64,000 nt of DNA, taken from assembly GCA_001791745.1 (NCBI GenBank), contig MGFG01000010.1, positions 3,351 to 67,350 of the forward strand. The letters are read 5' to 3'. The notes under the pieces are model-generated. The model saw only the letters and a program-made list of their open reading frames with translations, was not told where the DNA came from and did no database searches. Below are positions 6,481-54,243 of this stretch, piece by piece; the stretch's first letter is position 1, and each line of letters opens with the position of its first letter. The stretch is from Candidatus Uhrbacteria bacterium RIFOXYC2_FULL_47_19 (GTDB lineage: Bacteria > Patescibacteriota > Patescibacteriia > SG8-24). A program made the translations under genes and the position numbers.

Positions 6481-6493
6481 CGACCATTTATAT

Positions 6494-14089: not shown

Positions 14090-14149
14090 AGCTGGGATGA
14101 TTGTATCATTTTTCCTCGGTGGATGCTGCTTTACTTGCGGTTCGGGGAT

Positions 14150-15165: not shown

Positions 15166-15313
15166 TTGACCCCAAAAACAAAACCCCCGCGGTACCAAGC
15201 GGCAACGCGGGAGTTAAAGTATGTTTTCGGATTTGGCCCCGAAGGTGGGGCCTAGAAAAGAACTAGTAGGGCGCGGCAGGCTGCCGTGCCCTTGGTCAGG
15301 TGGGTTGGGGGGG

Positions 15314-16087: not shown

Positions 16088-16245
16088 TTCTCTACTCCTC
16101 CAGGGCCGCCCCGTCCTCATTTTACGAGGCGGCCCCAAGCTGTTTCTGTCACACGGCCTTTAACCCAGCCACGGGCCGGACTTACGTCCGGGGTTTGGTT
16201 CCGATTTATCCCGCTACCAAGCGAGACCAGGTTCGGAAATTAACC

Positions 16246-16362
16246 TGTTTTTTCTGGATCCCGGATCAAGTCCGGGACGACATTATTTGTCAGATCGACA
16301 TTTTTGTCAGATCGACAAACTCTGTCATCCCGGGCCGAGACCCGGGATCCAGCAACGACATT
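16246..16362. repeat. short MITE-like repeat unit between the two GC-rich genes
   Basis: CTGGATCCCGGATCAAGTCCGGGACGACA ... TTTGTCAGATCGACA x2 ... TGTCATCCCGGGCCGAGACCCGGGATCCAG. Confidence 0.7.
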
Positions 16363-16374
16363 CAACCGCTGGGT

Positions 16375-17367: not shown

Positions 17368-17664
17368 TTTTCAAAAATCTTGGACTCACGGGAACCATCC
17401 CATGAAGCCCTCAAATCGCCGGACGGTTTCGGACGGGGACAAGGAGGAGGTATCTCCGTCCTAGTCCACCCGGCGATTTCGGGACTCCATCAGCCCTACT
17501 TTAAAATCTTAAAAGCTAGACCTTTCCCAGCTTCACGACGGGTCAACTTAACATAAAATTGAAGTTTTGTCAAGGGTAAGGATGGAATAAGCCCAAAACA
17601 GCCGTCCAACAAGGCTGGACAGAAAAATGGGGGTCAAATCTTGACTTTTAGCCTTTATGAGATT

Positions 17665-18140
17665 TTTCCTGGGTCCCGGGTCTCGGCCCGGGACAACATT
17701 ATTTTATTTGTCATTCTTACTTTTTCTATTTGTCATCCCGGAGATGCAACCCTTAATAGTTTGTCATCCCGGAATCGTGAGCGAGCGTAGCGAGTCGAAC
17801 GATATCCGGGATCCAGAATCCGATCGGTTTTGCTTCTGGGTCCCGGATCAAGGTCGAGCCGCAGGGGAGGCCTGAACTGCTTCAGACCGACACGGCGAGA
17901 CCGGCGAGGCGATGTCCGTAGACCGAGGACCGCCGAGTCGCCGGGACGACATTATCTCGCTTGTTATTCTTACTTTCTTCTCTATTTGTCATCCCTGAAC
18001 CATTTTCTTTCTTAGTTTGTCATCCCGGAATCGTGAGCGAGCGTAGCGAGTCGAACGATATCCGGGATCCAGAATCCGATCTTTTTTACTTCTGGGTCCC
18101 AGATAGCCGCTGTCGCGACTTCCGGGACGACAAAAAATCC
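17665..18140. repeat. MITE-like repeat cluster with two ~70-bp near-identical copies
   Basis: GTTTGTCATCCCGGAATCGTGAGCGAGCGTAGCGAGTCGAACGATATCCGGGATCCAGAATCCGATC occurs at ~17757-17825 and ~18017-18083. GGGTCCCGGGTCTCGGCCCGGGAC at 17672. A GC-rich spacer sits between the copies. Confidence 0.8.
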
Positions 18141-24083: not shown

Positions 24084-24475
24084 TGGTGGAGATGGGGAGA
24101 TTTGAACTCCCGTCTGGTGAGTCGCTCCACGATACTTCTACCGATGTATTCCGTCTTGGTGTTTCGGGGTGGTGATGTTAGACGAACCAAACCCACCATC
24201 CCTATTTCCGTGCCAGGTCGGACCGCGCTACGGAAAGAGGCGCGGACCCAATCCGATATATGACACCCGGATCCCAACTATCGGACGTCGTTGGGTCGGA
24301 TGGGCATTCGGTTAAGCGAACGCCGAAGCGGTAACGGGCGAGAAAGCCGAAGCCATCGCGCTCTTCACCTTGCTGACAAAATTGGCGTGTATGTCATTGC
24401 CCTGAGATTTACGAGGTGCAGGCGCCCTCGACCGGCATATCGCGAAAGGATCTCCCATCGATCCCTGTCATCCCC
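24084..24475 (-). ncRNA. ssrA: tmRNA (SsrA)
   Basis: Minus-strand RNA starting GGGGAUGACAGGGAUCGAUGGG and ending ...GGGAGUUCAAAUCUCCCCAUCUCCACCA. A 7-bp acceptor stem GGGGAUG/CAUCUCC carries a G3:U70 pair (the Ala identity element). It has a T-arm GGAGUUCAAAUCUCC and a CCA end. It sits directly next to smpB. An internal frame ends ...GCUUCGGCGUUCGCUUAA (stop rc at 24312-24314). Confidence 0.8.
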
Positions 24476-27260: not shown

Positions 27261-27338
27261 GGACCGGTGGTGTAGCCCGGTTAACACGTCTCCCTGTCAC
27301 GGAGAAGATCGAGGGTTCGAATCCCTTCCGGTCCGCCA
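27261..27338 (+). tRNA. tRNA-Asp (anticodon GUC)
   Basis: GGACCGGUGGUGUAGCCCGGUUAACAC G UCUCC CUGUCAC GGAGA ... GGUUCGAAUCC ... CCGGUCC G CCA gives a cloverleaf with anticodon GUC. CCA is encoded. Confidence 0.85.
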
Positions 27339-36069: not shown

Positions 36070-37332
36070 TCAATCTGAAGACCCTGAAACGGGAAATGAT
36101 GGACCTGTTTCTGGCACGGTTTCAATTGATGGACGTGGTTTAGTAATGAAGGTTAGACTGTTAGCCATCACAGACAACGTCACTCGATAGCGTACCTCAA
36201 GCTGTCCCTCTAGCTCGTAACGCAGTAAGGCAACATTCATACCATCAGATATCAACACTGTTCGACGATCCGACATGGTCACCTGCTCATAACCGTGACG
36301 ATTAATCGATCGTCCAGCCTGACCAACCGCCGATACCCCACCAACTGGAGCTGATCGAAGCCAATCATCCAGTGTTGTTTCCGATTGCTTGGTGAACAAA
36401 GTTATCTTAAACGTCTCACCAGTTGATGAAGAAAAGCGTACTGACTGTTCGGCTGGTAAATCGCTCTTACCCCAGGCTGTGGGGTAAAAAATTTCAATTC
36501 CGTAATCCACGTTTCGATAGGTAGAAATTCCTGGATTGTCACCCAAACGAGCTGGTTCCTTTTTGGCTGGATCAAATAGGTTAAGCACCTCATTTAAATC
36601 AACAAAACTATCACCATCACTATTGGAAATATTTGGATCGCTACCATAAATAATGGTCTCTTCGGCATCGGTCAATCCATCACTGTCGGTATCGACAGAC
36701 GGTACTGGCTCAGGAGGTCGGCAATCACTACGACAAGAATCATAGCTCTCACCTCGGTCAATCTCACATTTACCGTCGCCACACTCTACCGCCGGTTGAC
36801 AGTCAGATGGGCAAGACTCAGTGGTCTCATCTCCATTACACTGTTTATCTCCACAAATAGCATCGGGTTGTCGACAATCTGATGGACAAGAAAGATAGCT
36901 CTCTGAACTTTCACAGCTACCATCACCACAAACTGGTGAAGGTGGTTCGCAATCGTTCGGACAAGCCGCGAAACTCTCACCTGACTCACAAAGATTATTC
37001 CCACAGACTGACTTTGGACTAGAAAAAAACAAGAAATAAACTGCCACTCCTAGAGCAATAACCAAAATCGCAACCATGGCGATGATCGCTATAGTGAAAT
37101 TTCCACTTGTCTTGTTGGCTGTTTTCTCAGTTGATGTGTCTGTAGTCGTCGAAATTGCAGGTACTGGTGAGCTAACTGCCTCCAATCGTGGTTTAGCAGC
37201 AGCTCCATAGAATTCCTCTGGCATGACAAAAATCTCCGGCTCTTCAGTGCTAGGTGTTGAAACAGGTGTAGTACCAGAAGGCCTATCTAATCCGGCTAAA
37301 TTTTTTTGTTCATCAGCCATAGGACCTCTCAA
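36070..37332 (-). CDS. bitopic membrane protein with tandem C-G-D-G-x-C-E...C-P-x-D-C cysteine modules and D-x-D-x-D-G Ca-binding-like repeats (hypothetical)
   Basis: TM (FTIAIIAMVAILVIALGVAVYFLFF). Four or more Cys modules (CGNNLCESGESFAACPNDC, CGDGSCESSESYLSCPSDC...). DTDSDGLTDAEE. Confidence 0.5.
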   Translation of the reverse strand: MRGPMADEQKNLAGLDRPSGTTPVSTPSTEEPEIFVMPEEFYGAAAKPRLEAVSSPVPAISTTTDTSTEKTANKTSGNFTIAIIAMVAILVIALGVAVYFLFFSSPKSVCGNNLCESGESFAACPNDCEPPSPVCGDGSCESSESYLSCPSDCRQPDAICGDKQCNGDETTESCPSDCQPAVECGDGKCEIDRGESYDSCRSDCRPPEPVPSVDTDSDGLTDAEETIIYGSDPNISNSDGDSFVDLNEVLNLFDPAKKEPARLGDNPGISTYRNVDYGIEIFYPTAWGKSDLPAEQSVRFSSSTGETFKITLFTKQSETTLDDWLRSAPVGGVSAVGQAGRSINRHGYEQVTMSDRRTVLISDGMNVALLRYELEGQLEVRYRVTLSVMANSLTFITKPRPSIETVPETGPSFPVSGSSD

Positions 37333-37343
37333 ATAATCCTTAA

Positions 37344-38111
37344 CTACTGAGGCAAATTAAACAGTTTCCCAGGACCGTTAGGATCGTAACCGGCTCGTAC
37401 TTCTTCGCCATCAATGTAACTGTCACCATCAGAATCCGGATTGGTCGGATCGGTTGAGTACTGTCGTAGTTCTTCTCGATCAGTCAGTCCATCAGCGTCA
37501 GTATCGGCTATTTGTGGATTAGTGCCGAGGGTAGCTTCTTCTATATCACTCAAACCATCACCATCCGTGTCGATCGGCTGATTCGCTGGCTCTGGCGGCA
37601 TGACCGGTTCATTGGGTGTAGCCTGACAATCAGAGGGACAATCCAGACTACCTTCATCGGCCTGACAAATACCATCGCCACAAGCAGATGGAATCAACGG
37701 ACAATCAGTTGGACAAGAAAACTTATCTTCGTCTAAATCACAAGTTCCATTACCACAAAGTGACCGATTCTCCGGTTCTGGAATCTGAACGTCAATCGCT
37801 GAGTTGGAATCATTCAAATTAGGGTCAGCCAGCTCATTCCCGACTGGAACCGCTCCATCACCTCTCAGAATGAAATACCAAACTGCACCACCGACCGCAC
37901 CAATCAACAATAAAAAGATAACGACAAAAAGAATCTTTGATGGACCTCTTGATGCCGCGGCATCGATCTGCGGAATTATACCCGACACTGGTGTCGGTGA
38001 AGTCCCGGCTGGTAGTGGGGATCCACTCACGACTGGCGGAACCATTCCGCCTTCCTTGGCTGGTTCTACTTCCGAAAAAATGTCGACTGGTTCGTTTTGT
38101 TCTTCGAACAT
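37344..38111 (-). CDS. paralogous bitopic Cys-module / Ca-binding-repeat membrane protein
   Basis: TM ([23 protein letters not shown]). [19 protein letters not shown] and [19 protein letters not shown] modules. [12 protein letters not shown] / [12 protein letters not shown] / [12 protein letters not shown]. Confidence 0.5.
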
Positions 38112-38146
38112 ATGAATACGTTTTTGATTACCCTGCGGTAGGAAGA

Positions 38147-38671
38147 TTATCTTTCCATGCCCAAACCAGAGAAGGCCTCCTCATTACCATCCTCGTCAGT
38201 ACCTCGCACCCTAAAAGAGTAGTTACCATCACTCAAACCGACGACTAGTAGACGATGGTCGGTAAGTAACTGAGAGTCTGAGACTGAACCTAATTCGTAA
38301 CTCTCACTGATGCCATAATCGACACCTGAAGTCATAGGCTTGGACGTTTTCCAAGTAACCTCGACCTGACTATCGGATAAATTAGTCAGATAGATATCGC
38401 TAAACGAGCCAAAATCGACACAGTCTGACCAACAAATATCAACCGATTCGGATTCGACACAAATTCCATCGCCGCAAATCGCCCTGTTTCCCTTTGCTGG
38501 TTCACCATTACCAGCCTCGGTATCTTCATTAATAATCGCAATCTGACCAGTGGTCTGACCCTGAGTATTGGTAGCTGATTGTCGATTACGCAAAACAGCA
38601 AACACAGCCATACCAATAGCCAAAATTACCGCTGCACCTAACACCACCAAAATTAGATTCTTATTATTCAT
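38147..38671 (-). CDS. paralogous small membrane-anchored protein (Cys module + fibronectin-III-like domain)
   Basis: TM at the N-terminus, [19 protein letters not shown], then a beta-rich ~90 aa domain. Confidence 0.45.
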
Positions 38672-38677
38672 AAGTGA

Positions 38678-41600
38678 TTAAGATGCTCCGCAAATGTACT
38701 GAAATATACTTTCGTACAAAGCATTGCTATTTAGCCCTGGCGTCGCATCTTCAACAACAGCTCCATGCTCGTCCAAATCAAAACTGATATACCTCTGTTC
38801 AGCCGTCAGCTGCGATCCGGTTCCGTCGTCAGTGGACGGAAGAGCAGGTAACCACAAAGGCTTGTAATCATTCTTACTAATAACGAACATCTCAACATAT
38901 CCACCATCAGAGCATCCTGTCAGAGTGCAATGTTTGGCTGCAGCAGTTACATCATCAAGTTGGATGGAGGCCAACAGGTCTTCAGGTGCACCGTATGTTC
39001 CAATTGGAGGTGGTTCATCACTAACGATTACCACATACGGCTGAGCATCATCTCGCCAGGCAATATCGTAATCCCATTCTCTTTCAATTCGCGGATCACA
39101 ACCGTCTTCCGGACTACAACTAACCATACCCGGTCTCATAAGAGCATAGGCTGCAGCATAAAGTGGTTCTTTTCCGCCTTTATCAATCTCACATCGAGTG
39201 GTCCGACGATCTGGAGTCCAACAATTGTCACGTGTTCCTTCCAGGTGACTATTAAAGTCACCCACACTACCTAACTGAAAGAACATATATTCATCCATCC
39301 TATCACCACCATCACTATAAGACTTCATCATGTTGAGTGTCTTCACCTCTGGCTGTCCTACCGTCACGTAACCAAACCGAAGATCTCTTCCTCTCTCACC
39401 ACTGAATCTAGCAACAAAATGGTTCAAGGATTCGATTAAAGAATCGATAATGCTATTCATTGATCCGGTTACATCAATAACGAACACCATGTCAATCTTC
39501 CGGTGTAGGTATGGGGGTAAATCATCGAAATCACCGTTACAGTTACCGTCGTCTTCGCAAAGCTGCTCACCAACCGGAACCACTAAAGTAGTCCCTGGAA
39601 TTCGATACTCTGGTCTAATTGATGGATCCAAACTACCACAATCCAGTTCATCTGGTACTCCATCATTATCATCGTCCGGATCACACTCATTCGGTAGCCA
39701 AGTTAGTGGAGTCTCCGCTAAACCGTCGGTTGCCCAATGTTGCCGGTCCAAACAAAACTCAAAAAGTGATCTGGGTGCACTGCCTGGCCGTCGATCTCCG
39801 ATTGGCGGAGCCTCACGCAAAACATCATAACTCACCATTTCACAAGACTCCCTGTTTTCGCTAGAGCTCCACAATATATCAAAATTACTAGAGGCGACAT
39901 AGTGACACAACTCAGAATCACGGTCAGCACAAGAATAATTACAACCACTCAATGAGCAAATACCATAACCGGTCTGTACGCCAAAACTCCTATCTTTGGG
40001 TCGAGTACTAACACAGACCCAACCATCACCAATAGGCGCACCGTGTGTGTCGCATTGTTCCGGACCAGGAGGCGACGAAGTTGCATTCTGCCTTTCACCA
40101 TCACCACAGTAGCCACCTGAAACCGTACCTAGTCGACAAGCCGAAGTGCAGTAATTACAAGTATGCCCGTACTCGGGTACGCAAGGCTCATTGTTTCTTT
40201 CACTACTATCACACATCTCTCCACCGGCTGCATTCACAAAACCATCACCACAAATATTGTTAACACAAGCACTGGTGCATGCGTCATTGTCTTCATCATT
40301 ACCATCATCACACTGCTCACCGGTCTCAGTCACACCGTTACCACAACGACCTGGGGCGGTACAGGACCAAGCACTCCAATTACAAGATTGATTAGGTGCT
40401 CCATCTCTATCATCCTCAATAGACGCCACATTGTTAGGATTGCAAGCTCGGTGGAACCTCTGCTCGACGGTTGGGCAGGTCACACAACGCTCCCCACCAG
40501 CCAGATTACAATCCGCATCTGCTGAACAAGTCCGACCTGATGGATGCAGCGGATCGACATCGACCGGTCGTCGACAGACACCACGACTCTCCTCGGAACC
40601 ACCATCACATTGCTCTGCACCGTTAACAATGCCATCACCACAATGTGGAGCCGAACCACGACAATCCCAGGAACAGGTAGCAAAATTAGCCCCAGTACGA
40701 TCTTCCCCAACTCCACAACCTCTGATCCCACCCGACGAAGCAATAACTGCATTAATTGCATAACGTCCATTCAAATCACGACAATCACATAGCTCACTAG
40801 GATGAGGCGCGCCATCGCCGCAAAAGAAGGTCGAACCACTACAAATACCATTACAATGTCCGTATGTACCATTGAGCGGCCCATCATCACAAATCTCAGC
40901 CCCTTGCCTTCGTCCATCACCACAGTAACCAATTCGACAGGTTCCGGGGACAACCTCCCAACCACGACAGTCTGCTGTACAAGCCTGTTCGACTGTCCCT
41001 CCTACACAAACACCATCAGCACCAGGTTCGGTCCGAAGATCCCCTAATTCACAAACCTCACCTGGATTGATAATACCGTTGCCACAACCAACTTCCTCAC
41101 TTTCCGACTCTCCGATACACATATCGGCGCCAGCATTTACTCCATAAGCTCGGAATCTAACAGTCTCGTAATTACAGCTTCCAGCTGGCGGAACACCATT
41201 CCAAACACAGCCAGGTGTTCTCCCACAAATTTCGCTTTCTCTTATCTCAATGCAAGTTGAGCCGATCCACCCTCCACCAACATATTCCATGTCCACAGAT
41301 AGATCAGCTTGACCAGCCAAAATCTGATATCGATAAATACTGGATCTAGCCCCACAACTAAACTGCCGACTAACCGAATTCCAACAAGTTTCCCGATCAA
41401 AACCATCATCAGGACAAGAAGTCAAAATATTTAGTGGATCAGACGGTATAGTTCGACCAACTGCTGAGGATAGTACATCGCCCCAGGATGGCCAGATACT
41501 ATAGGTTCTTGAACGTATATAAGTCCCTTCTCCTAGGGTTGGCAATGGACGATTGGCCATGAGTAGCGACCTCATTGTATGAAGGTCTGACCAACGACGT

Positions 41601-44600
41601 ACATCACGAACAAGCTTTGACTTAGAAACATTGCAAGTATCGTCGACACCACAATCACTATCACTGGAGCAAGTGATTGCTCTACCATCTACATCGAGTA
41701 CCGCCCGACCTTCATGTAGACAAATGAAAGTATCAACCAACTCAGGTTGCCGATTAAAATCAATGCGATCCATTAGTTGGTTAAAGACTGTAATAGTCTC
41801 AGGAGCTGCACCATCACTGAAGGAAAACACATTAATAATGGTTTCCAATTGTCTACCATCGCTCATCTTAGCTGAGTTAGCATAGACAGTCCGACCTTCT
41901 TTCAAAGCATCGTAACCATCAACACTAAACGGAGCTGGAGCACCAGTGAATCCACGATCGCGATACCAATCAATTACACCTAGATGCTTTGGATTTTTCA
42001 TTACCCGAAAGCCGATAGCGTCGTTACGCCAGGCATCATCTGCCCCGGCACCAGCAAAAGTAAAGAGGTATTCATGCTCGATATCTCCACCTGGAGAAAC
42101 TAAGACGAAATCATCATTAATAGCTGGTAGCAGATCGTCACCATCACCACCCGAAGAGTCACGACAATAGTAAAAGCTGGCCTTAGTTGCTGGATCAACG
42201 AATGGGTACCAGAACTTTTCAACTCCAGCCGTACAATCTTCACCATGAAGCGGATTAAGTATATTATCGGGATCCCAAGGTAGATGTAACCTCCCATCAT
42301 CACCACAAATCTGAACTTCCGGCCAGATGACGTCACAAAGTGCGACCGTAACTTTTGAATTACCCGGGAGTACGAACCCACCAGGTATGGGCAAGCGAGT
42401 ATGATCGTCAAGTAACGGCAAAAGGGAAGTAGATCCGTCAGGATTGACGGTGACTGCATTGACCAACACATCAACTACGCCGTCCTGCGGCACATACCCG
42501 ACCGGATCATCAGAAGTCTCACGCCCTCTAACTCTAACTGTCGCTTGTTCACTCTGTCGTCCTCCGACAGTAATTGGATTCAGTACGGCCGGAGAAACAT
42601 GCGGTGGACGTTCGGAAAGCGGTAACCATTCCCATGACCATGAGTACTCCCTAGTTGGGACAATCAAACTAACAGCCTCTCCGTCGAGGCGAATACCACG
42701 GTCGCTGGATACACCACGAGCCACAAGTGGCTTATCAAGAGTTTGCACATGGTTCAACAAAACCTCCGCAGGACTGACGATTACCTGATCAATGGCGCAG
42801 ATCAGGTCACCTGTGGTGAATTCTGCGGTCAGGCCAGCTGGGGCGACTCTTACTCCACCAACTGTCCTGGCATCCGGCTGAACTCTAACCCTGACCCGAG
42901 TACCTGCAGGAAGAGCGTGGTCCAACTTAAACTCAACTTCGGTCCTACCTTCCTCTGTCAGTCTAACGGTTATATCTCCAGTGACCGAACAGAAATGAGT
43001 ATGTGGAACCCCGATAGCATGTCCCAAAACAGGTCGACCAAATAGATCACTGAAAAATGCGGCAACAGTTGACCAAGCTCTGTGCAGTAGACCAACACGG
43101 CCGGCAGCCATTATTCCCAACGGAGCCGGAGGAAAAGGTGGAACTTCAATCACTCCACTTTCATCCGGAAGACCATCCAAACCCACCGGACAACCAACTG
43201 CTCCACTATCGACTCCGATCAATAAATTCTGAGTAATTGAAGTCGAATTCATGGGCTGATCAAATCCCAAGTGGATGGCAGTATTACGACAAATACCAAC
43301 TGAACCCTCAGCTGGATAGGTCAGCTCACCATGTGGCCTTGGTGCACAACAACCCGAATCAGCGCAGGCCAGACCAGCCAGTGGTCGTAGTCCGGCCGGC
43401 ACTCCGGCCAGCAATCCCGAGCAATACTCATCTGGATTAACCTGAGAACTGCAATTACAAGACAAAGTAACACGTGAAGTACCCCTCGATCTCTCCGGTA
43501 GTCGATCAATCGACGTATGAACTACACTCGTGGTTGCTACACCAACGGTCTCGTCGTAATCTCCAGCAACTGTAATTTGCCGCTTATCAATTCTTTCATC
43601 AGGCTCAACCTCATCGTTATCGCAGAAAGGATGCTCGCCCGGTCCACTAAATCCATCTCCGCAGAAAGAAGTGGTGCGATAAAAAGCCGATGAACCTTCA
43701 AACAGGCAACGACTACTGCAGCCGTCACCATTATCTGTGTTGTTGTCATCGCACTCCTCGCCGGGATCCAAAATATTGTTACTGCAGTCAGCGGGTAAAA
43801 CTGAGCCAGTCTTAGTACAAGAATGCAGATCACAACCCAACGCAACACCACCAGCTAGATCACAATCAGGATCCTCACCTGGTTCTATCCGAGCGTTACC
43901 GCACTGACTAACACAGGGTTCATCTTCTGGTGTAGCAATAGTGCAAATCGGCAAGGTTCCTTCATTAAGACAATCTGCACTGCAACCATCACCATCACGG
44001 CGGTTACCATCCTCGCAGGCTTCACCATCACCCAAGAACCCATCGCCACAAACAGACCTTCCAGCAGTAGATCCTAAGAAAATACAGCCAATACCGTTAA
44101 GCTCTGGCCGATCCTCAATATTGATATTCGGATCCTTGCAGCCCAACAGGAAGACAGAGATACCTTCAGCATCAGGCAGGGCTTCACACATTTCACCCGG
44201 ATCAAACAAGCCGTTACCACAATTCGGTGGAGCTGAGCCTTCCGCAAGACAGGATGGACTACAACCGTCATCCGGTCGAAGACCTCCATCATCACAATCT
44301 TCTCCACGCTCAGCTCGATCTCTGGCTGGACGCGGATCATCCGGATCGGTATTTCCGCACTGTGAAACCACATCAGTCGAACCTATCAATAGACACTGAC
44401 TATCACAGCCGCGTCTCGGTACAGGATTAGTGTCGACTCTGACGTCCATCCCAGTTTCAGAACCGACTTCCCTAGCCCTAATAAAACCAGTTAACACAGG
44501 ATTCGGATCGATTGACCAATCCCAATCATAACCCCAAGCATCAAGTTCCTGACCGTCAGGACTACACTCGTCGGCCGGTCCATACGCTCCGACATTGAGC

Positions 44601-47600
44601 CCAAGCCTCTCACTTACGTAACGTAAGGTAGCACTAGGTGGTATGATCTCTGCTCGAGAAATCTCACAAACACTACCATCAGTTTTAGTCCTAAACTTCC
44701 ACTCATAAAAACCAGGTACATTAAGTCCAGTGAGCGGTACATCACTAGTAGACAGGACCCCATCTGCTCCACCTCTGATTCTAACTTTATAAAAGGTGTT
44801 TGGTAGTAACATGAGACCTGGACCCAACACGATCCTAGCCTGCAAAGCCGCATCTGGATCGCCGGGTGGAAGCACACGAGCACCATCATCTCTAATCGAC
44901 TCAACCGAAAAACCTATTGGTATGTAAGGCGGGTTACATGACGCATTACGACACTGGAAAAATTCCACGTTGCCAGCAAAGGATCGTGCACTCATTGGTA
45001 TATTGAAAACCGCACCAATTTTTGCGTTAACACAAGCCTCGGTACAACCCTCGGTTGGCATGGTTCGTACCACCCGCGGATCAGCAAAAGCCACCGATAC
45101 CATCGAGATACCTCGACGCTCCAATAACTCGCCAGCTGGTCGCAGAGATGCGATTAACCTCTCTGGTGCATCGACTGGAGTCTCCAGTCGTCCGGTAGTC
45201 ATTTGTCGACAACCCACACCCCCGTCGCCAAGCAAACTGATAAAAACACCTGGATCGCTTGACCACCTCAAGTCAAAACCGACACGTCTAACGCATTGTA
45301 ATCGATTACAGTTGGCAATTCTCATCAAAGCAGCATTGAAACCATTAGTCGGATCTGCTGATGGACCTTGATGAGAGATCGTATAACGTGATGGCAAAAC
45401 CATTACATTATCAGCTGCACAAGCTGCACGATCAGCTCTTGTCTTGAATGTCCAAACGAAATTACCACCAGCTCGTCGATCATAGTCGCCGTCCAAATAT
45501 CGACCAGTTGCGTCTATAATACCGACTTCAGTGACCGGATCAGAAACTAAAGTAATTCGATACCAAGTATTAGGCTTAAAGTAACCAGTGAACGGTTCAT
45601 CTTCAGCATCATCAGGATCATCTGGTGGATAGGCTAGACTCGGGTGTATAGAAAGTATCGTCGCGGCTCCATCTGCTGTCAGATCCGTTTCGACTGGACG
45701 AGCAATCGGCACGAAACTAGGTTCTTTAGGACAGTCGATATCGCGACCACTACCGCATTCTTCAATAAGTAACGATTCCGGATCATTCAGTGAATCTATA
45801 TTCATTAATAAACTAAACTCCACGGCAGCCAAAGCATTACGACAAGCATCAGTTGCTCGTTGTTGCGGTGTGGGGCTCTGAATAGTGCCGGCCTCAAGAC
45901 TACAAGAAGCACGCTGCACAACTATAGGCAACGTTGGTAAAACGTCAGTGCTAAAAATCCAACCAAACTTACTATCTCGAGCTTCTGGTTCACAGGATTC
46001 ACGACATGAACCATTGGCACAACAAGTCGTCCCCTCTTCACAAATCCCATCGTCATTACAATCGCCAACCTTAAACGGAATCGGATTACGAGTAGCCACA
46101 TTACGAGCCACGGCAAAAACTGGACCAGAATTTGGCCAAGTATTTCTATCAGCGGGATTACCAGGGATCGCCGATCTAATAGAAGTCCTGGTCCAACCTA
46201 GATAGGCTGCTCCTGGTTTGGTGACCAAACCGTCCATCAAACCAGGAGCAGCTGCCGCTCCAGAAACGTAAAAACGAAGTGAATTTTCTGGTTGACGAGC
46301 ATCAAATCCGGCAAAACCGGGAGTATCAATATTGGCCGGACCTGGACCAAAACCTTCGCCTGATACTGTTACTGGTATACCCGGCTTACCATTATTAGGT
46401 GTAATCGAGCACATACCAGGCGCTATTGGACTGTCATCAACTAAGAAATCGACTCGATTGCTAACTTGAGCTGGAGCAGCTGTTTCGACCTCAATCCGGT
46501 GGAGTATACGAGAGACTGGTAAATCTCCAATATAATTTTCTGGCACTTTCACAACGATGTAATTGTCGTGCCAGTTATCGTCGCAGATCGGATCCACGGC
46601 AATAGCTGTATCAACTCCATCTGGTGATGAGATAAACCTCACTAATCCCTTACGTCGTCCAAAGCCACTACCACGCAAAGTAATATAAGAGTCGACTGGA
46701 CCAGAAGATGGAAGTATTTCAATGATTCGCGGTCCAACATCATCATCACGACGACGCAAGGTAAAATCGAGTTGATTAGTCGTAATGCCATCCAGACCAC
46801 CAACCATCACTGAAACCTGATAGACACCCTCAGGTAGAACTGCTGGAACAACGGCAGAAACAGCCGAGGCTGTCCAACCCCCACCAGTCACATCAGCGTT
46901 CACTCCACCCATTCTAATTAAGCTAGCACCCATGGCATCACCAAAACCGGCCCCATGAGCGATAAATCCATCACCAGCTGAACCGGTTGCCGGCTCCAAA
47001 TAGCAAATCCCGGGCAGAACCTCGTCATTAACAATAAAAGCACCAATCATCGGCTCAAATTCATCGTCAGTACGATCCGAAGTTCCAGAGGAAGTGACTA
47101 ATTGTAGAGGTCCTGTAACTACACCTTCTGGAATCGCAATCACCACCTCGTTGTCGGACCAGGACCAGGGTGAACAGGCAACCATTGACTTGTCATCATC
47201 ATCACCAGCCACCTCTCCATCACCATCTGTGTCACCTCCTAAGAAGATCACTTGCCCCATCGTGCCGCCAAAGAAACGCCCACTAATCGTCACCAAGGTC
47301 CCGGGTCCAGCCCTCAATGGAGAAACATCAAGTATCGTTGGTCGTTCCTTACATCGACCGGACTCTGGATCGCAAAATCCAGTAGCACAATCGGCATGAA
47401 CACGACAAGCATCGCCACCACAAGCACCACAACCGGAGTCCACTCCACAATCTATCCTCTCTTCTCCTAGCTCAGCATCCAGCTCACCATTGCAACAATG
47501 AGCAGGATTAATTCTAAACTTCTTGTCGATAGCTTCACTGGCCTGAGGTACACCATCGTAACCAACTGCAGATAAAATATGCTCACCATCAGCCAAACTC

Positions 47601-48733
47601 GAAGAATCAATGAAAACCGAATCAGATAAGAAAGGATTCTCTAAGGCAGCGTTAATAGTACTAAATAACGGCTCACCGTCAGCATCAGTTAAGTGAGCCA
47701 ACCCACCATCTAGCATAAAGTCGACTCGAGATGGTAGAAAATCATCCAAAACTCTAGCCCGAACACGGATACGATCCAAACAATAGGCCGGAGTTGAAGC
47801 TGGAGAATCAATCCTGATAGTCGGTGGCTCAACATCACGAAGATTGTTGAAAGCCATGGCCCGATCACACAAACTCGATAATGCACGCGGCGAAGAGATG
47901 TCGCCATCTGGACCCGGCGGTAGGAAAGGACAAACCAGAATCCGACCACGAACGTCAGTGACATCACCACCAAGCACTCGCACCCGATACCAGTAATCCT
48001 CTTCAAAATCAGTGGGGTGATCTCCTGGAGTATCCTTTGGTCTAAATATCACTCGATTAGCTTCAACTGTTCGATTTCCAGAAACTATGGTATCGCAAGC
48101 CCTCTCATTAAATGGAGCAGGATCTCCACCAGAGAGTCGTGAATTACATCTCTCCACTACAAAGGAAGTTCCACTAACAGTTGCTGCGGCGACCTCATGA
48201 CTAAAAGCAACAGTAATAGCGTAGTTCTTAGGCCAACCAGAATCACCAGGACCACTACCGACTGGAACCACACCAGAAACCTTAAAGCCACCAGAACCAG
48301 CTCCTGGTATACCGCAAACTTCTCCAGGTGGACAACGTCCACCTCCTGGCCCCACACCACCCTCGAGTCCGGTACCAGAGATTATCGCTCTCAAGATAAA
48401 CTGAGCAATAGCAAAGGCTGACATGATAATAATCAGACCTATGACCGCCTGAGTCATTACCCTCTTGGCACGACTGACTTGTTCTTCATTACCTTGGGCC
48501 GTCATCCAGAGAAAGCCGGCATACAAAATCAATAACACAGCCACTATGCCCAGTAACCCAAGAAAATAATTGACGATATTACCAATAATCGTCCGAATGT
48601 CGGTCGTACCCAGACCAGTCGATGTCGCATAATCCAGACCAAGATCGGTTTGCGCTAAAACCGGAAATACAAACAGAGCCACGCCAAAAACAATGGCTGC
48701 GGTAGTTGCTAATTTTTTCCGATTTATAAACAT
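38678..48733 (-). CDS. giant (3351 aa) surface protein: N-terminal TrbC/VirB2-like pilin anchor, IPT/TIG domains, many Cys-rich (Myxococcus-type CGDGx..GE.CDDGN..DGDGCS..C) repeats, C-terminal vWA domain
   Basis: A single uninterrupted 10 kb ORF. The N-terminus has two TM helices and YAGFLWMTAQGNEEQVSRAK. Several TIG-like segments (RPTILDVSPLRAGPGTLVTISGRFFGG; PRIIEILPSSGPVDSYITLRGSGFG). More than 12 Cys-rich repeats. vWA with DVTGSM (MIDAS-like) near residue ~3000. Confidence 0.7.
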   Translation of the reverse strand: MFINRKKLATTAAIVFGVALFVFPVLAQTDLGLDYATSTGLGTTDIRTIIGNIVNYFLGLLGIVAVLLILYAGFLWMTAQGNEEQVSRAKRVMTQAVIGLIIIMSAFAIAQFILRAIISGTGLEGGVGPGGGRCPPGEVCGIPGAGSGGFKVSGVVPVGSGPGDSGWPKNYAITVAFSHEVAAATVSGTSFVVERCNSRLSGGDPAPFNERACDTIVSGNRTVEANRVIFRPKDTPGDHPTDFEEDYWYRVRVLGGDVTDVRGRILVCPFLPPGPDGDISSPRALSSLCDRAMAFNNLRDVEPPTIRIDSPASTPAYCLDRIRVRARVLDDFLPSRVDFMLDGGLAHLTDADGEPLFSTINAALENPFLSDSVFIDSSSLADGEHILSAVGYDGVPQASEAIDKKFRINPAHCCNGELDAELGEERIDCGVDSGCGACGGDACRVHADCATGFCDPESGRCKERPTILDVSPLRAGPGTLVTISGRFFGGTMGQVIFLGGDTDGDGEVAGDDDDKSMVACSPWSWSDNEVVIAIPEGVVTGPLQLVTSSGTSDRTDDEFEPMIGAFIVNDEVLPGICYLEPATGSAGDGFIAHGAGFGDAMGASLIRMGGVNADVTGGGWTASAVSAVVPAVLPEGVYQVSVMVGGLDGITTNQLDFTLRRRDDDVGPRIIEILPSSGPVDSYITLRGSGFGRRKGLVRFISSPDGVDTAIAVDPICDDNWHDNYIVVKVPENYIGDLPVSRILHRIEVETAAPAQVSNRVDFLVDDSPIAPGMCSITPNNGKPGIPVTVSGEGFGPGPANIDTPGFAGFDARQPENSLRFYVSGAAAAPGLMDGLVTKPGAAYLGWTRTSIRSAIPGNPADRNTWPNSGPVFAVARNVATRNPIPFKVGDCNDDGICEEGTTCCANGSCRESCEPEARDSKFGWIFSTDVLPTLPIVVQRASCSLEAGTIQSPTPQQRATDACRNALAAVEFSLLMNIDSLNDPESLLIEECGSGRDIDCPKEPSFVPIARPVETDLTADGAATILSIHPSLAYPPDDPDDAEDEPFTGYFKPNTWYRITLVSDPVTEVGIIDATGRYLDGDYDRRAGGNFVWTFKTRADRAACAADNVMVLPSRYTISHQGPSADPTNGFNAALMRIANCNRLQCVRRVGFDLRWSSDPGVFISLLGDGGVGCRQMTTGRLETPVDAPERLIASLRPAGELLERRGISMVSVAFADPRVVRTMPTEGCTEACVNAKIGAVFNIPMSARSFAGNVEFFQCRNASCNPPYIPIGFSVESIRDDGARVLPPGDPDAALQARIVLGPGLMLLPNTFYKVRIRGGADGVLSTSDVPLTGLNVPGFYEWKFRTKTDGSVCEISRAEIIPPSATLRYVSERLGLNVGAYGPADECSPDGQELDAWGYDWDWSIDPNPVLTGFIRAREVGSETGMDVRVDTNPVPRRGCDSQCLLIGSTDVVSQCGNTDPDDPRPARDRAERGEDCDDGGLRPDDGCSPSCLAEGSAPPNCGNGLFDPGEMCEALPDAEGISVFLLGCKDPNINIEDRPELNGIGCIFLGSTAGRSVCGDGFLGDGEACEDGNRRDGDGCSADCLNEGTLPICTIATPEDEPCVSQCGNARIEPGEDPDCDLAGGVALGCDLHSCTKTGSVLPADCSNNILDPGEECDDNNTDNGDGCSSRCLFEGSSAFYRTTSFCGDGFSGPGEHPFCDNDEVEPDERIDKRQITVAGDYDETVGVATTSVVHTSIDRLPERSRGTSRVTLSCNCSSQVNPDEYCSGLLAGVPAGLRPLAGLACADSGCCAPRPHGELTYPAEGSVGICRNTAIHLGFDQPMNSTSITQNLLIGVDSGAVGCPVGLDGLPDESGVIEVPPFPPAPLGIMAAGRVGLLHRAWSTVAAFFSDLFGRPVLGHAIGVPHTHFCSVTGDITVRLTEEGRTEVEFKLDHALPAGTRVRVRVQPDARTVGGVRVAPAGLTAEFTTGDLICAIDQVIVSPAEVLLNHVQTLDKPLVARGVSSDRGIRLDGEAVSLIVPTREYSWSWEWLPLSERPPHVSPAVLNPITVGGRQSEQATVRVRGRETSDDPVGYVPQDGVVDVLVNAVTVNPDGSTSLLPLLDDHTRLPIPGGFVLPGNSKVTVALCDVIWPEVQICGDDGRLHLPWDPDNILNPLHGEDCTAGVEKFWYPFVDPATKASFYYCRDSSGGDGDDLLPAINDDFVLVSPGGDIEHEYLFTFAGAGADDAWRNDAIGFRVMKNPKHLGVIDWYRDRGFTGAPAPFSVDGYDALKEGRTVYANSAKMSDGRQLETIINVFSFSDGAAPETITVFNQLMDRIDFNRQPELVDTFICLHEGRAVLDVDGRAITCSSDSDCGVDDTCNVSKSKLVRDVRRWSDLHTMRSLLMANRPLPTLGEGTYIRSRTYSIWPSWGDVLSSAVGRTIPSDPLNILTSCPDDGFDRETCWNSVSRQFSCGARSSIYRYQILAGQADLSVDMEYVGGGWIGSTCIEIRESEICGRTPGCVWNGVPPAGSCNYETVRFRAYGVNAGADMCIGESESEEVGCGNGIINPGEVCELGDLRTEPGADGVCVGGTVEQACTADCRGWEVVPGTCRIGYCGDGRRQGAEICDDGPLNGTYGHCNGICSGSTFFCGDGAPHPSELCDCRDLNGRYAINAVIASSGGIRGCGVGEDRTGANFATCSWDCRGSAPHCGDGIVNGAEQCDGGSEESRGVCRRPVDVDPLHPSGRTCSADADCNLAGGERCVTCPTVEQRFHRACNPNNVASIEDDRDGAPNQSCNWSAWSCTAPGRCGNGVTETGEQCDDGNDEDNDACTSACVNNICGDGFVNAAGGEMCDSSERNNEPCVPEYGHTCNYCTSACRLGTVSGGYCGDGERQNATSSPPGPEQCDTHGAPIGDGWVCVSTRPKDRSFGVQTGYGICSLSGCNYSCADRDSELCHYVASSNFDILWSSSENRESCEMVSYDVLREAPPIGDRRPGSAPRSLFEFCLDRQHWATDGLAETPLTWLPNECDPDDDNDGVPDELDCGSLDPSIRPEYRIPGTTLVVPVGEQLCEDDGNCNGDFDDLPPYLHRKIDMVFVIDVTGSMNSIIDSLIESLNHFVARFSGERGRDLRFGYVTVGQPEVKTLNMMKSYSDGGDRMDEYMFFQLGSVGDFNSHLEGTRDNCWTPDRRTTRCEIDKGGKEPLYAAAYALMRPGMVSCSPEDGCDPRIEREWDYDIAWRDDAQPYVVIVSDEPPPIGTYGAPEDLLASIQLDDVTAAAKHCTLTGCSDGGYVEMFVISKNDYKPLWLPALPSTDDGTGSQLTAEQRYISFDLDEHGAVVEDATPGLNSNALYESIFQYICGAS

Positions 48734-48764
48734 GACTTGTTCTTAATCTAAGAGAGATGATCGA

Positions 48765-51020
48765 CTAGATCGAACATAAATAATCTTCCTGACCATTCCG
48801 ATTACAACAGGAATTATTGTCTCCCATCGCGCAATTCCATCCGACACTAGGGAAAAAGCAATTCTGCAACGTATCTTGTATCTGGGCTCCAATAACCGGC
48901 TGATAGACTGGCAAACGTCCAGGCCATGAAACCATTTCTTCCATGGTGTAGCCCATGTCATTAGCGGTAAAGAAACCACGGTGCGTAATCATCATTCGAG
49001 TTACCATTTCATCACCAATCTCTACCGGACCTTCACCCAAATCCATGAAAAAGTAAGGTGGATCCAGCTGGATGTACGGACAGTCCTCGGCCGGATCAGA
49101 ACAGTCTTGATCCAAACTTTTCTTGGCTAATTCCTTAGCACGTAAGGCAATCGTTGTCCGGCCGTCAGAAAAAGCATTCCTAACCTCGTCGTATGCACCA
49201 GTCCGCATCGATCTGACACTCATTATCTTGTCCCATAAAACTGTTATCGGCAGATCGGTCGGAACTCGCGACGGTCCCTCTGGGTGATTCGGATGAAGTG
49301 GATCAACCGGTGGTGCGCTCTTGGGATCGATATCCATAACCGTTGGTGGTCTCAAATCGATCTCCTCACCAACATGATAAATCCATCTGGCTGTATCGTT
49401 GATACCTGCTAGAGCAGCTGGTGGATTATTCCGATTGAAATCAATTCGACGTTCCGCACTCTCTGGACCCTCGGCTGTCTCATTGCCGTTGCCGTCGAAC
49501 GAATTACCAACCATGTCCAACACACCATCCGGACGTGAAGCCTTGGGCGGCTCCGAACTTAAGGTTGCAGCCAAAGCACGTACTCGAATCTCGACGTTAC
49601 GCGGTAGGCAAAAAACTTGATTACCACAAGAATTCTCGGTAATACCCTCACATGGTTCACTAGGTACAAATTCAGCCGTCCGATAACGATTACCAATGTA
49701 AATCTTGCCAGAAATAGAGATGAACGACTCTCCATCACTGAAGTCACAATCCGTGTCCGGCAGACAACGAGCCTTTACCTCTATATTGGTGAATCCGCCG
49801 CCCTCGCCAATAATGCCGCTCACTGTGGTCGGATCAACCGCCTCATTAAAATAGATCTGTAGTAGTTGGTTGCGGGGCACTACGTCCGCCGGTCGACTAG
49901 GATCAATGACTGGTATCGGCACCACCGAGGTTATGTGTGGTGGTGTCAAATCAAGCATGGTTCCAGTCGTAAATGGCCAGAAGTAACCACCATCTGCGTT
50001 CATAGAAGTGAACGCATTTTGCTGATCTGGGTCAGCACTTTCAGTATCACTCGGCGACCAAACCTTGATACCATTGTCCCCTCCCCTAAGCGCTACGCGA
50101 TAGACAACATCAGTGGTTGGACTACCAATCGGAAGTGCCGGAGAGATGGTGATGGTTTGACCTTCAAGTGGATCAAAGGCTGCTGCCACAGCTGTAATTC
50201 GAACTGTGGGAGGTGGATCTACAAGTGCACCTTCATCCGGATATCTAGTATCGAACCGTTCATCTGGGCTGGAACCATCCATCCCCCCCAGTTCGGTTAC
50301 AGCGATAATCTTGAAATTATCGGTATTGAGTTGGAGGACTTCTGGCACCGCACCTCCGTCCACTGTGTCATCAGCGATATCGTAAGTCTCGGCGTCATCG
50401 TAATTACGAAAAACAGTCGACAGAACCAAGGGACGTTTAAAAGTAATCGAAATGTTTGTATTGCGCGGAACATCAATTTGTCCAACTTCCGGATAATGAT
50501 ATTCGATAATGCCATTACCTAACTCACCAGTTGGACCACCATGAGGCATCTCTCCCCATTCACGACCTCTGTCACCGCCCCCGGCACCAGGTACAATCGA
50601 GTGGCCAGTGAGCGCCTGAATAATAAAGGCAGTAATGGAGTAGGCCATGATCATAATGATCAACCCAATGGTCGTATTGGTAATAACCTTCTTAGCTTGA
50701 TCAACCTTAGCTGCGTCTCCCCGAGCAGTCATCCATAGATATCCGGCATAGATGTACAACAAGACAACAATGAATCCGAGTAAGGCAAAAAAGGCATTAA
50801 TCACTCGCCCAACAAAAACTCTTATGTCGGTCGTAGCTAGACCAGTTGCAGTAGCGAAGTCTAAACCAACATCGCTAGTAGTCATTTGTGCCGATACAAC
50901 TTCTGGCAAAAACAAAATCAGTAAAATAAAAGCCACCAAAACCGAGGTTCTGCTGGCATTCCGAATGTGCAACCAAGATCCTATCTTGAGTTGGTTGCGG
51001 GACCCATACCTTCCAAGCAT
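48765..51020 (-). CDS. 751-aa surface protein with N-terminal TrbC/VirB2-like pilin anchor (paralog of giant protein N-terminus)
   Basis: Its N-terminus DVGLDFATATGLATTDIRVFVGRVINAFFALLGFIVVLLYIYAGYLWMTARGDAAKVDQAKKV aligns with the giant protein's DLGLDYATSTGLGTTDIRTIIGNIVNYFLGLLGIVAVLLILYAGFLWMTAQGNEEQVSRAKRV. Confidence 0.6.
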   Translation of the reverse strand: MLGRYGSRNQLKIGSWLHIRNASRTSVLVAFILLILFLPEVVSAQMTTSDVGLDFATATGLATTDIRVFVGRVINAFFALLGFIVVLLYIYAGYLWMTARGDAAKVDQAKKVITNTTIGLIIMIMAYSITAFIIQALTGHSIVPGAGGGDRGREWGEMPHGGPTGELGNGIIEYHYPEVGQIDVPRNTNISITFKRPLVLSTVFRNYDDAETYDIADDTVDGGAVPEVLQLNTDNFKIIAVTELGGMDGSSPDERFDTRYPDEGALVDPPPTVRITAVAAAFDPLEGQTITISPALPIGSPTTDVVYRVALRGGDNGIKVWSPSDTESADPDQQNAFTSMNADGGYFWPFTTGTMLDLTPPHITSVVPIPVIDPSRPADVVPRNQLLQIYFNEAVDPTTVSGIIGEGGGFTNIEVKARCLPDTDCDFSDGESFISISGKIYIGNRYRTAEFVPSEPCEGITENSCGNQVFCLPRNVEIRVRALAATLSSEPPKASRPDGVLDMVGNSFDGNGNETAEGPESAERRIDFNRNNPPAALAGINDTARWIYHVGEEIDLRPPTVMDIDPKSAPPVDPLHPNHPEGPSRVPTDLPITVLWDKIMSVRSMRTGAYDEVRNAFSDGRTTIALRAKELAKKSLDQDCSDPAEDCPYIQLDPPYFFMDLGEGPVEIGDEMVTRMMITHRGFFTANDMGYTMEEMVSWPGRLPVYQPVIGAQIQDTLQNCFFPSVGWNCAMGDNNSCCNRNGQEDYLCSI

Positions 51021-54166: not shown

Positions 54167-54243
54167 TGGTGGACGATGGTGGTCTCGAACCACCGACCTC
54201 TGTCGTGTGAGGACAGCGCTCTAACCAACTGAGCTAATCGTCC
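54167..54243 (-). tRNA. tRNA-Val (anticodon CAC)
   Basis: The reverse complement GGACGAUUAGCUCAGUUGGUUAGAGCGCUGUCCUCACACGACAGAGGUCGGUGGUUCGAGACCACCAUCGUCCACCA folds as a cloverleaf with anticodon CAC. Confidence 0.85.

Follow-up and report, generated by a model that had tools for sequence, protein, structure and literature searches.

The subject of this analysis is a 15-kb locus (36070-51020, minus strand) in a 64-kb stretch of the genome of a groundwater Candidatus Uhrbacteria (GCA_001791745.1); the whole 64,000 nucleotides are called the window below. Five co-oriented open reading frames (ORFs), for proteins of 751, 3351, 174, 255 and 420 amino acids (aa), form a cassette, and the products of the first two, the 751-aa protein and the 3351-aa giant, share one predicted four-part order: a Sec-type signal peptide, a two-helix hairpin of the T4SS_pilin family (T4SS, type IV secretion system), a Gly-rich linker and, where known pilins end, a large ectodomain. 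By gene order and protein comparison this cassette is a core element, present at one chromosomal position in at least 80 species. We lean, with guarded confidence, towards the view that it encodes a vertically inherited surface apparatus, a fibre or adhesin, of the ABY1 Patescibacteria, whose main parts would be two 'modular' VirB2-like pilins. Incorporation into a pilus and binding to a host are functions that we infer.

Why should such a cassette be of interest? Much of bacterial diversity belongs to the Patescibacteria, whose means of contacting partner cells are largely obscure. Short VirB2-like pilins and pilin arrays are known; what appears to be new is a VirB2-like pilin module serving as the carrier of very large ectodomains, and a class-level lineage that keeps fusions of this module to very large, adhesin-like ectodomains at a fixed position. 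The fusions are a concrete candidate for the surface fibres of ABY1 cells, and the cassette is a natural experiment in what a VirB2-like module can carry. Together with its variable tip it also offers a simple marker for comparative and proteomic work. Censuses of VirB2-like proteins and automatic annotation as 'pilin' hide proteins that are 5-30 times pilin length.

What marks the N-terminal module as pilin-like? A sequence-only reading of this DNA had noted an N-terminus with two transmembrane (TM) helices common to both large proteins, and this is borne out: the modules are 49-51% identical over ~100 aa, and by hydropathy each consists of a signal-peptide-like helix and two strongly hydrophobic helices, with a short basic loop between the two. 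The hydrophobic segments of the 751-aa protein lie at aa 26-44, 73-91 and 116-134, and its AlphaFold2 (AF2) model has helices at 66-97 and 103-138 and a disordered linker at 141-157; in the giant the Gly-rich linker covers aa ~119-158. The N-terminal motifs quoted in that reading are genuine and conserved across the family, with G62, G73, W76, T78 and G81 invariant in the family alignment of the module. The likeness to TrbC/VirB2-type pilins that it proposed stands by one profile and falls short by another. Against Pfam T4SS_pilin (PF18895) the giant scores 44.3 bits over aa 43-113 and passes the cut-off of 26.6; the 751-aa protein, with 23.7 bits, lies under that cut-off, and a precomputed PF18895 match is on record for almost every one of its orthologues. 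Against TrbC/VirB2 (PF04956) the giant reaches 27.0 bits (E 5.4e-6), just under the cut-off of 27.9, and some close homologues carry a precomputed PF04956 match. NCBIfam NF045849, a pilin-like protein of a Mycoplasma integrative and conjugative element (ICE), gives 39.3 bits, just under its cut-off of 40.

The closest relatives of the module are themselves short proteins. With aa 1-200 as query, the 120 closest relatives all have 110-298 aa (30-66% identity), nearly all of them from Patescibacteria and many annotated 'pilin'. Aligned with 34 stand-alone pilins, both window proteins keep the same order of residues up to the end of helix 2; the stand-alone pilins end 10-15 residues past it, whereas the window proteins run on into the Gly-rich linker. 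PF18895 describes a small stand-alone protein that ends after helix 2, whereas here 600-3200 residues follow the module. The 'significant' PDB matches, to designed Pizza beta-propellers, are an artefact in which six weak 'AGTVWVTDHGN' repeats are summed.

Is the module then more than a passive anchor? Its conservation is about equal in 751-like proteins, giants and short pilins (42-51% mean pairwise identity), and the modules of 751-like proteins and giants are more alike within a genome than across genomes (53.9% versus 44.3% identity; higher within the genome in 68 of 78). In modules that go back to an ancient duplication, this excess suggests co-evolution or gene conversion (concerted evolution). 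Because the module is as conserved as in free pilins, and because of this within-genome similarity of the fused pair, we favour a role beyond anchoring for it.

The cassette was examined with its flanking DNA in 83 relatives, namely 80 species-representative genomes and three long metagenome contigs. All 83 have the order lepB-hisS-(rpsU)-yqeY, followed by a pilin fusion of ~600-900 aa and a giant pilin fusion; where the DNA reached past the giant, a 255-like gene, a 420-like gene and ybeY-dgkA-ftsA-ftsZ follow. The comparison with related genomes that had been proposed thus comes out clearly, with both the cassette and its flanks conserved. Orthologues of the 751-aa protein over its full length form 94 clusters at 90% identity, and most of them have 570-900 aa. 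A contig pattern search gave 572 relatives, a number not to be read as 572 cassettes, since the pattern YAG[YFV][LI][WY]MT[AS] also matches short pilins and giants; at least 80 cassettes are verified. The metagenome-assembled genomes (MAGs) with the cassette bear the names Uhrbacteria, Falkowbacteria, Buchananbacteria, Komeilibacteria and generic Patescibacteria. Many cassette-bearing MAG records (CAY.../CAZ..., for example L012, L015, L017 and L019) are titled 'uncultured Gammaproteobacteria bacterium'; these are evidently mislabelled, their synteny being identical. The idea of a variable, lineage-private adhesin island is ruled out by the fixed position in all 83 relatives and by the colinearity of aa 1-2900 of the giant.

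One might wonder whether a 10-kb ORF of unusual length and repeat richness is a genuine gene at all, rather than a pseudogene or a mis-assembly. At least six assemblies, each deposited independently, contain the locus (JGI 3300025088, JGI 3300002209, two ENA ANAN16-1 assemblies, Logan SRR3989339 and NCBI GCA_036827225.1), and their DNA is 99.9-100% identical over 10-12 kb. The gene for the giant is called intact in every assembly with a long enough contig, and the frameshifts about which the sequence-only reading had warned are absent from these assemblies: all that differs is a single substitution, in the 751-aa gene, and one 12-nt stretch. The latter, which looks like an in-frame indel in assembly L003, is made up mostly of Ns and is apparently a scaffolding gap, not a variant. 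With aa 1-1200 of the giant as query against 1.84 billion cluster representatives, 764 (50% identity clusters) match at E<=1e-30; among the best 150 of these most are 2000-4800 aa long, and in many the alignment begins at residue ~5-30. There are hundreds of orthologues of 2000-4800 aa, with colinear amino-acid conservation. No support was found for a pseudogene or an assembly error, the probability of which we take to be negligible, and on these comparisons the giant ORF is a genuine and widespread gene.

What do the modules carry? The AF2 model of the 751-aa protein (59 homologues; predicted local distance difference test, pLDDT, 86.4; predicted template-modelling score, pTM, 0.78) has an all-beta ectodomain. 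In structure this comes closest to bacterial Ig-like domains (LdtMt2 domains A/B), to CopC and to the surface-layer (S-layer) protein SbsC, and no enzyme fold appeared in the fold search of this model; Big_5 matches the protein with 26.2 bits. In the giant, Big_5 has about five matched regions, two of them above the 23.6-bit cut-off, and when the proximal-stalk segment is taken by itself Big_7 (21.9 bits) and Big_5 (19.0 bits) both stay under cut-off. The TIG-like domains that had been read in the giant are confirmed by PF01833 (cut-off 20.9), with 56.8 bits in two stretches for the whole protein and 66.6 bits in three stretches within aa 400-820. The Cys-rich repeats, which had been put at 12 or more, number 13 by motif (CG[DNS]x-initiated) and fall into two clusters. 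TIGR02232 (myxo_disulf_rpt) matches five stretches of the giant with 82.7 bits (cut-off 20.8; best stretch aa 1561-1591), and DUF4215 (PF13948) matches four stretches with 35.3-45.5 bits (cut-off 27). Just before the TIG domains (46300-47540; giant aa ~400-470) lies a compact Cys-rich segment, CCNGELDAELGEERIDCGVDSGCGACGGDACRVHADCATGFCDPESGRCKE, that matched no Pfam family; with TIG after it, the layout is reminiscent of PSI-IPT in plexins and Met receptors.

The C-terminal end of the giant is a more delicate matter. A von Willebrand factor A (vWA) domain with a motif resembling the metal ion-dependent adhesion site (MIDAS) had been read there; the quoted motif is present in the sequence, but the giant's own scores are sub-threshold. 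VWA_4, TssR_VWA, VWA and VWA_2 match only aa ~3078-3140, the first ~58 profile positions, with 14.7-17.2 bits, below cut-off, and phmmer gave no PDB match for the region. The MIDAS-like VFVIDVTGSMN has D-x-T-x-S versus the canonical D-x-S-x-S, and aligns with VVFITDLSGSMN of locus L069 and VFITDTSGSMG of L070; the other MIDAS residues were not located in the giant, and pairwise BLAST to the VWA orthologues aligns only the first strand and the MIDAS-like motif. Scans of the C-terminal 600 aa of ten orthologues placed VWA above cut-off in L069 (51.1 bits), L070 (36.9 bits) and L066 (24.2 bits), at the position matching the vWA-like region of the giant. Other orthologues have different tips, MopE with TSP_3 in L030 and L083 and a CarboxypepD_reg-like domain in four more. 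A vWA domain in the tip of the giant is plausible, being supported indirectly by the recurrence of vWA as an orthologue tip.

How far does the conservation of the giant extend? Across the 70 loci with long giants, aa 1-2900 are matched colinearly; the tip is covered in at most nine of the 70, and beyond aa ~2950 in 0-3. After the pilin module the proximal stalk is the most widely covered region of the ectodomain (63-70 of the 70 loci). Judged by this coverage, the giant is a conserved stalk with a lineage-variable tip.

The three small proteins are each bitopic by hydropathy, with a TM helix in each, as had been proposed. Seven 4-Cys modules (C-G-[DN]-x-x-C-x8-10-C-x3-C) are distributed among them, one in the 174-aa, two in the 255-aa and four in the 420-aa protein. 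The further proposal that each protein joins such modules to dockerin/TSP3-like calcium-binding loops is right for the modules and only in part for the loops. TSP3_bac (PF18884, cut-off 25) matches the 255-aa protein with 52.8 bits and the 420-aa protein with 23.2 bits, just below the cut-off, and several orthologues of the latter carry a precomputed PF18884 match; no TSP3/dockerin-like loop is seen in the 174-aa protein, which has weak Ig/fn3 matches only. The dockerin family has no match at E<=0.1 in any of the five cassette proteins. The AF2 model of the 420-aa protein (pLDDT 80.4 overall) has a C-terminal PsbP-like domain, modelled at pLDDT >90, for which Foldseek finds CyanoP (2lnj, E 9e-5) and the PsbP chain of photosystem II (7pi0_P, E 8.5e-5), with probability 1.0, and also Tsi3. 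The template-modelling score normalised to the target is 0.43-0.53, a match at the fold level only, with no sequence family matched.

It would be wrong to regard these proteins as a set of small Cys-module paralogues, as the sequence-only reading did. By comparison of their orthologues, the 255-aa and 420-aa proteins are two distinct conserved families, the latter of 103 clusters, and what recurs in them is the TM helix, the TSP3 repeats, the PsbP-like domain and short cytoplasmic motifs. Cysteine is absent in 11 of 16 relatives of the 255-aa protein, and most orthologues of both proteins are without any cysteine; the Cys modules are a decoration of this lineage and therefore not a defining feature. 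A counterpart of the 174-aa protein is detectable in one other locus only, L072. The cytoplasmic-tail motifs, noted in the window proteins and in orthologues from L009, L024, L025, L028, L053, L068, L079 and L085, are 'EDIF(S/A)(E/D)V' in ~10 of 17 aligned 255-like sequences, often after an N-terminal MFD, and 'V(M/Y)P(E/D)xF(R/Y)' (V-M-P-x-x-F) in the 420 family. Given the position of these genes two genes upstream of ftsA-ftsZ, a cytoskeletal partner for the tails is conceivable.

How might such an apparatus be put together? The two large proteins would leave the cell through Sec and lose their signal peptides to signal peptidase I, encoded by lepB three genes upstream. In the membrane the hairpin would take an N-out/C-out topology with its short basic loop in the cytoplasm, so that residues past ~120 would be extracellular. 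The 751-aa protein might then be a rod of roughly five or more Ig-like domains, and the giant a fibre of great length built from Big_5, Big_7 and TIG domains and disulfide-rich repeats, the distal 450-600 residues of which would act as a variable binding tip: vWA-like here, and a true VWA, MopE/TSP3 or a CarboxypepD_reg-like domain elsewhere. Adhesins are typically laid out in this way, with a stalk that is conserved and a ligand-binding tip that varies. The pilin module would most likely interact with the same partners as the short pilins, and the fusions may enter a VirB2-type filament as subunits that are sparse or that stand at its base or end, or they may be components of a hetero-oligomeric membrane base. 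The two TSP3 bitopic proteins, one of them with a PsbP-like, presumably protein-binding domain, are probable Ca-dependent accessory factors of anchoring or assembly, and the 174-aa protein and the Cys modules would be additions of this lineage. The solved structures of F-type pili have the N- and C-termini of the pilin on the outer face of the filament, and F-pilin with a short fusion at its C-terminus exposes that fusion on the pilus. A bolder proposal, which we put forward tentatively and with more doubt than belief, is that the module is a true polymerisation unit, the short pilins of a separate array building a VirB2-type filament of which the fusions are dedicated base and tip subunits. 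If so, there would be a T4SS-type pilus in a monoderm with a built-in adhesin of >3000 residues, whose variable end sets the partner cell. No 'modular' T4SS pilin would have preceded it, and the whole clade would possess an organelle for host contact.

Several observations weigh against a pilin-based apparatus for host contact. A profile search of the module alignment against all PDB sequences found no solved VirB2, TraA or TrwL pilin, and the fold search of the hairpin gave generic helical hairpins and no pilin; it is the Pfam and NCBIfam profiles, and these only, that carry the predicted kinship with VirB2. We know of no pilus demonstrated for any PF18895 protein. An ectodomain of 3200 residues cannot sit on every subunit of a filament, so that incorporation would have to be sparse or terminal, and gene conversion of neighbouring paralogues, not physical interaction, could be the cause of the closer likeness of the two modules within a genome. 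No VirB4, VirB6, coupling protein, relaxase or integrase is found among the ORFs scanned in the window, the genes recognised beside the 83 related cassettes are all housekeeping genes, and in another ABY1 genome, GCA_000994165.1, the VirB2-like match is listed as not near VirB4 (PMC12102498 Table S3). That the stalk is deeply conserved among housekeeping neighbours suits a structural role in the envelope as well as it suits host binding. This is the substance of the main rival explanation, by which the hairpin is a mere anchor that always stays in the membrane and the large proteins, with their TSP3 partners, form a constitutive coat, spacer or S-layer-type scaffold of the ABY1 envelope that has no part in pili or partner contact; genomic context and deep conservation suit it equally well. 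The cassette behaves as core genome, at one position between housekeeping flanks and with a stalk colinear over deep divergence; T4SS genes are not linked to it; the ectodomain of the 751-aa protein resembles bacterial Ig-like and S-layer (SbsC) beta-sandwich chains; and Ca-binding TSP3 partners are typical of proteins that cross-link the envelope. An anchor, however, would have no need of 42-54% identity to polymer-forming pilins, nor of a conserved extracellular N-terminal motif and loop, and the variable C-terminal tip, a VWA in several orthologues, resembles a ligand-binding end and not a lattice element. We consider a purely structural scaffold a serious explanation, and on the whole an unlikely one.

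Might the cassette instead be a part of the division machinery, working with ftsA-ftsZ at the septum or pole through contacts of the 255-aa and 420-aa cytoplasmic motifs (EDIF, VMPxxF) with the divisome? Wherever the locus DNA reached that far, the cassette lies two genes, ybeY and dgkA, upstream of ftsA-ftsZ, the motifs are conserved, and the spacers between its genes, from the ORF coordinates, are 6-70 bp. No strong terminator-like site lies in the spacers of the five genes, the strongest candidate being between ftsA and ftsZ; in this promoter and terminator scan (32-52 kb) the site counts were not above those of shuffled-sequence controls, and the scan gives no evidence on operon boundaries. 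The linkage may however be no more than an old insertion into a conserved housekeeping block. In other bacteria too, Bacillus subtilis for example, rpsU-yqeY and ybeY-dgkA are adjacent, and the ftsA/ftsZ linkage is probably inherited. Likeness of the small bitopic proteins to FtsQ, FtsN or another divisome component was also sought in Pfam, NCBIfam and fold searches and found no support there, and a direct role in division seems improbable. Still further from our expectation is that these are conjugative pilin genes of a mobile element, an ICE or plasmid, devoted to DNA transfer. The family name and the near-threshold NF045849 match invite that idea; the window, on the other hand, gave no relaxase, coupling protein, VirB4/B6 or integrase among the scanned ORFs, the chromosomal position is fixed in at least 80 species, and relaxases are rare in the T4SS loci of Patescibacteria generally (PMC12102498). 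Synteny effectively refutes it, and we give it very little credence. A surface fibre or adhesin built on two modular pilins is accordingly the explanation that we prefer.

The place of the five genes upstream of ybeY-dgkA-ftsA-ftsZ, and their common orientation, are as the sequence-only reading gave them. On the upstream side lie yqeY, hisS and lepB; on the downstream side ybeY, dgkA, ftsA and ftsZ are followed by nrdR and the genes for pyruvate kinase and a PEP-utilising enzyme. The remainder of the window holds housekeeping and envelope-polysaccharide genes. The genome belongs to class ABY1 and has 1,036,605 bp and 895 coding sequences (PMC12102498 Table S1), so that ~1.4% of this 1.04-Mb genome is given over to the 15-kb locus. 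The ORF finder starts the 420-aa ORF at a TTG; the NCBI model, 100% identical, starts four codons downstream at ATG 37320, probably the true start, for a protein of 416 aa. Coordinates of the cassette genes, their parts and the short-pilin arrays are collected in Table 1.

Table 1. Features of the pilin-fusion cassette in the window, and short-pilin arrays on other contigs
Feature	Position	Strand	Basis or content
751-aa pilin-module protein	48765..51020	-	ORF list; signal peptide, two-helix hairpin, Gly-rich linker, all-beta ectodomain
Signal peptide, 751-aa protein (predicted, aa 1-44)	50889-51020	-	
Pilin module, 751-aa protein (aa ~45-138)	50607..50888	-	hydropathy, AF2 model, identity to the module of the giant
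Ectodomain, 751-aa protein (aa ~160-751)	48768..50543	-	predicted chain of Ig-like beta-sandwich domains, conserved cysteines
3351-aa giant pilin-module protein	38678..48733	-	ORF list; independent assemblies agree
Signal peptide, giant (predicted, aa 1-27)	48653-48733	-	likely cleavage after VLA
Pilin module, giant (aa ~28-118)	48380..48652	-	PF18895 profile match
Proximal stalk, giant	46334..48256	-	Big_5 and Big_7 at aa ~160-390, Cys-rich knot at ~400-470, at least 3 TIG at ~470-800
Cys-rich repeat cluster 1, giant (aa 1459-1730)	43544..44359	-	CG[DN]G...C..DGC..C type; DUF4215 43.4 bits
Cys-rich repeat cluster 2, giant (aa 2550-2900)	40034..41086	-	DUF4215 45.5 bits; motif list
C-terminal 'tip', giant (aa ~2901-3351), lineage-specific	38681..40033	-	vWA-like start at aa ~3078-3140
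174-aa bitopic protein	38147..38671	-	N-terminal TM helix, one 4-Cys module, weak fn3/Ig-like C-terminal region
255-aa bitopic protein	37344..38111	-	cytoplasmic tail, TM helix at aa 60-78, two 4-Cys modules, TSP3 repeats
420-aa bitopic protein	36070..37332	-	cytoplasmic tail, TM helix, four 4-Cys modules, TSP3 repeat, PsbP-like domain
PsbP-like domain, 420-aa protein C-terminus	36151-36543	-	AF2 and Foldseek
Short-pilin arrays, three ABY1 genomes including the source organism	L010 6284-10420; L092 8195-12631; L093 4607-7530		

Elsewhere in the window there are a tmRNA (24084-24475, minus strand, 123.5 bits), a tRNA-Asp(GTC) (27261-27338, plus strand) and a tRNA-Val(CAC) (54167-54243, minus strand). 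A GC-rich island at 14000-18000 (0.556-0.591 versus ~0.46 elsewhere) was possibly acquired horizontally. One ORF in it, of 274 aa (15314-16138, minus strand), has a long acidic repeat, (DADS/DVDA)n, together with the canonical thrombospondin type-3 motif DSDGVLDDADNCPEIANPDQADLDGDGFGAECD; another, of 330 aa (16375-17367, minus strand), has a hydrophobic segment at its N-terminus, then a coiled coil, and is rich in beta structure towards its C-terminus. At 4372-8467, adjoining glycosyltransferase and O-antigen-ligase-like genes, two more large predicted surface proteins are encoded, one of 702 aa with GHL15 and FG-GAP repeats and one of 657 aa with DUF11 and NPCBM-associated domains.

Where are the short pilins of these organisms, and where is the secretion system? 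The 139-aa pilin A2480_01055 of the source genome is found on contigs of other samples within a tandem array of eight short PF18895 pilins. Such arrays, of 6-8 genes, lie directly downstream of a gene for an SBP_bac_1 solute-binding protein, itself preceded by an NTP_transferase gene, and no T4SS-linked Pfam family other than PF18895 is annotated within 10 kb of them. VirB4 is present in GCA_001791745.1 (PMC12102498 Table S1), outside the window. For GCA_000996355.1 (L066), in which the cassette pair is clearly present, no VirB2 is listed (PMC12102498 Table S3), and for this reason the fusions appear to have escaped the published VirB2 census. VirB2-like pilins and pilin arrays as such are known in Patescibacteria (PMC12102498; reviewed in PMC12857230). 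In Southlakia epibionticum a T4SS and six short PF18895 pilins (~125-185 aa) are essential for epibiotic growth, the role of the pilins not being established in that study (PMC10633639), and in Paceibacterales the genes of unknown function with the highest expression include those for PF18895 proteins (PMC10936435). Neither the fusion of a T4SS-pilin module to a large ectodomain nor this cassette was found described in our full-text literature searches.

How do the fusions compare with known systems? Nearest to them are the VirB2-like pilins of Patescibacteria, such as SEML1_0014-0019 of Southlakia, with which they share PF18895, the signal peptide and two-helix hairpin, and up to 66% identity. 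The known members, however, have ~110-185 aa, and here 600-3200 extracellular residues are added; and the Southlakia pilins are encoded inside a T4SS gene cluster, whereas the fusions are in a housekeeping block away from any T4SS gene. With TrbC, VirB2 and TraA of diderm T4SS (PF04956) the likeness lies in the predicted topology, in the 27.0-bit match and in termini predicted to point outward. The differences are a score below cut-off, no match to a solved pilin, a monoderm host and the large C-terminal fusion; cyclisation or processing partners were not identified here.

Other comparisons concern the ectodomains. Vampirococcus lugosii, which also has a reduced genome, encodes giant membrane-anchored surface proteins of 1392-4163 aa that are proposed to serve host attachment (PMC8080830), and the likeness is that of very large predicted surface proteins with interaction domains. 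Their domains, however, are WD40, PKD and saposin, and the accessible part of that account mentions neither a T4SS-pilin anchor nor conserved synteny (PMC8080830). The repeat families of the cassette are common to the myxobacterial TIGR02232/DUF4215 proteins and to bacterial TSP3 proteins such as CglD and MtsD, whose architectures are unrelated to those of the cassette proteins and whose full-length models score far below cut-off. A parallel in design may be seen in the modular type IV pilins of Streptococcus sanguinis, in which PilB carries a vWA and PilC a lectin module. These fusions are much smaller, and are presumed to be exposed along, or at the end of, a filament that consists mainly of short pilins. 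Modular type IV pilins have a class III signal peptide, a prepilin peptidase and an unrelated fold, in place of the Sec-type signal peptide and hairpin found here, and no type IV pilus pilin family in Pfam or NCBIfam matches the cassette proteins. What would be shared is a logic, the joining of a polymerisation module to an adhesive module, vWA included, and the resemblance is one of analogy and not of membership.

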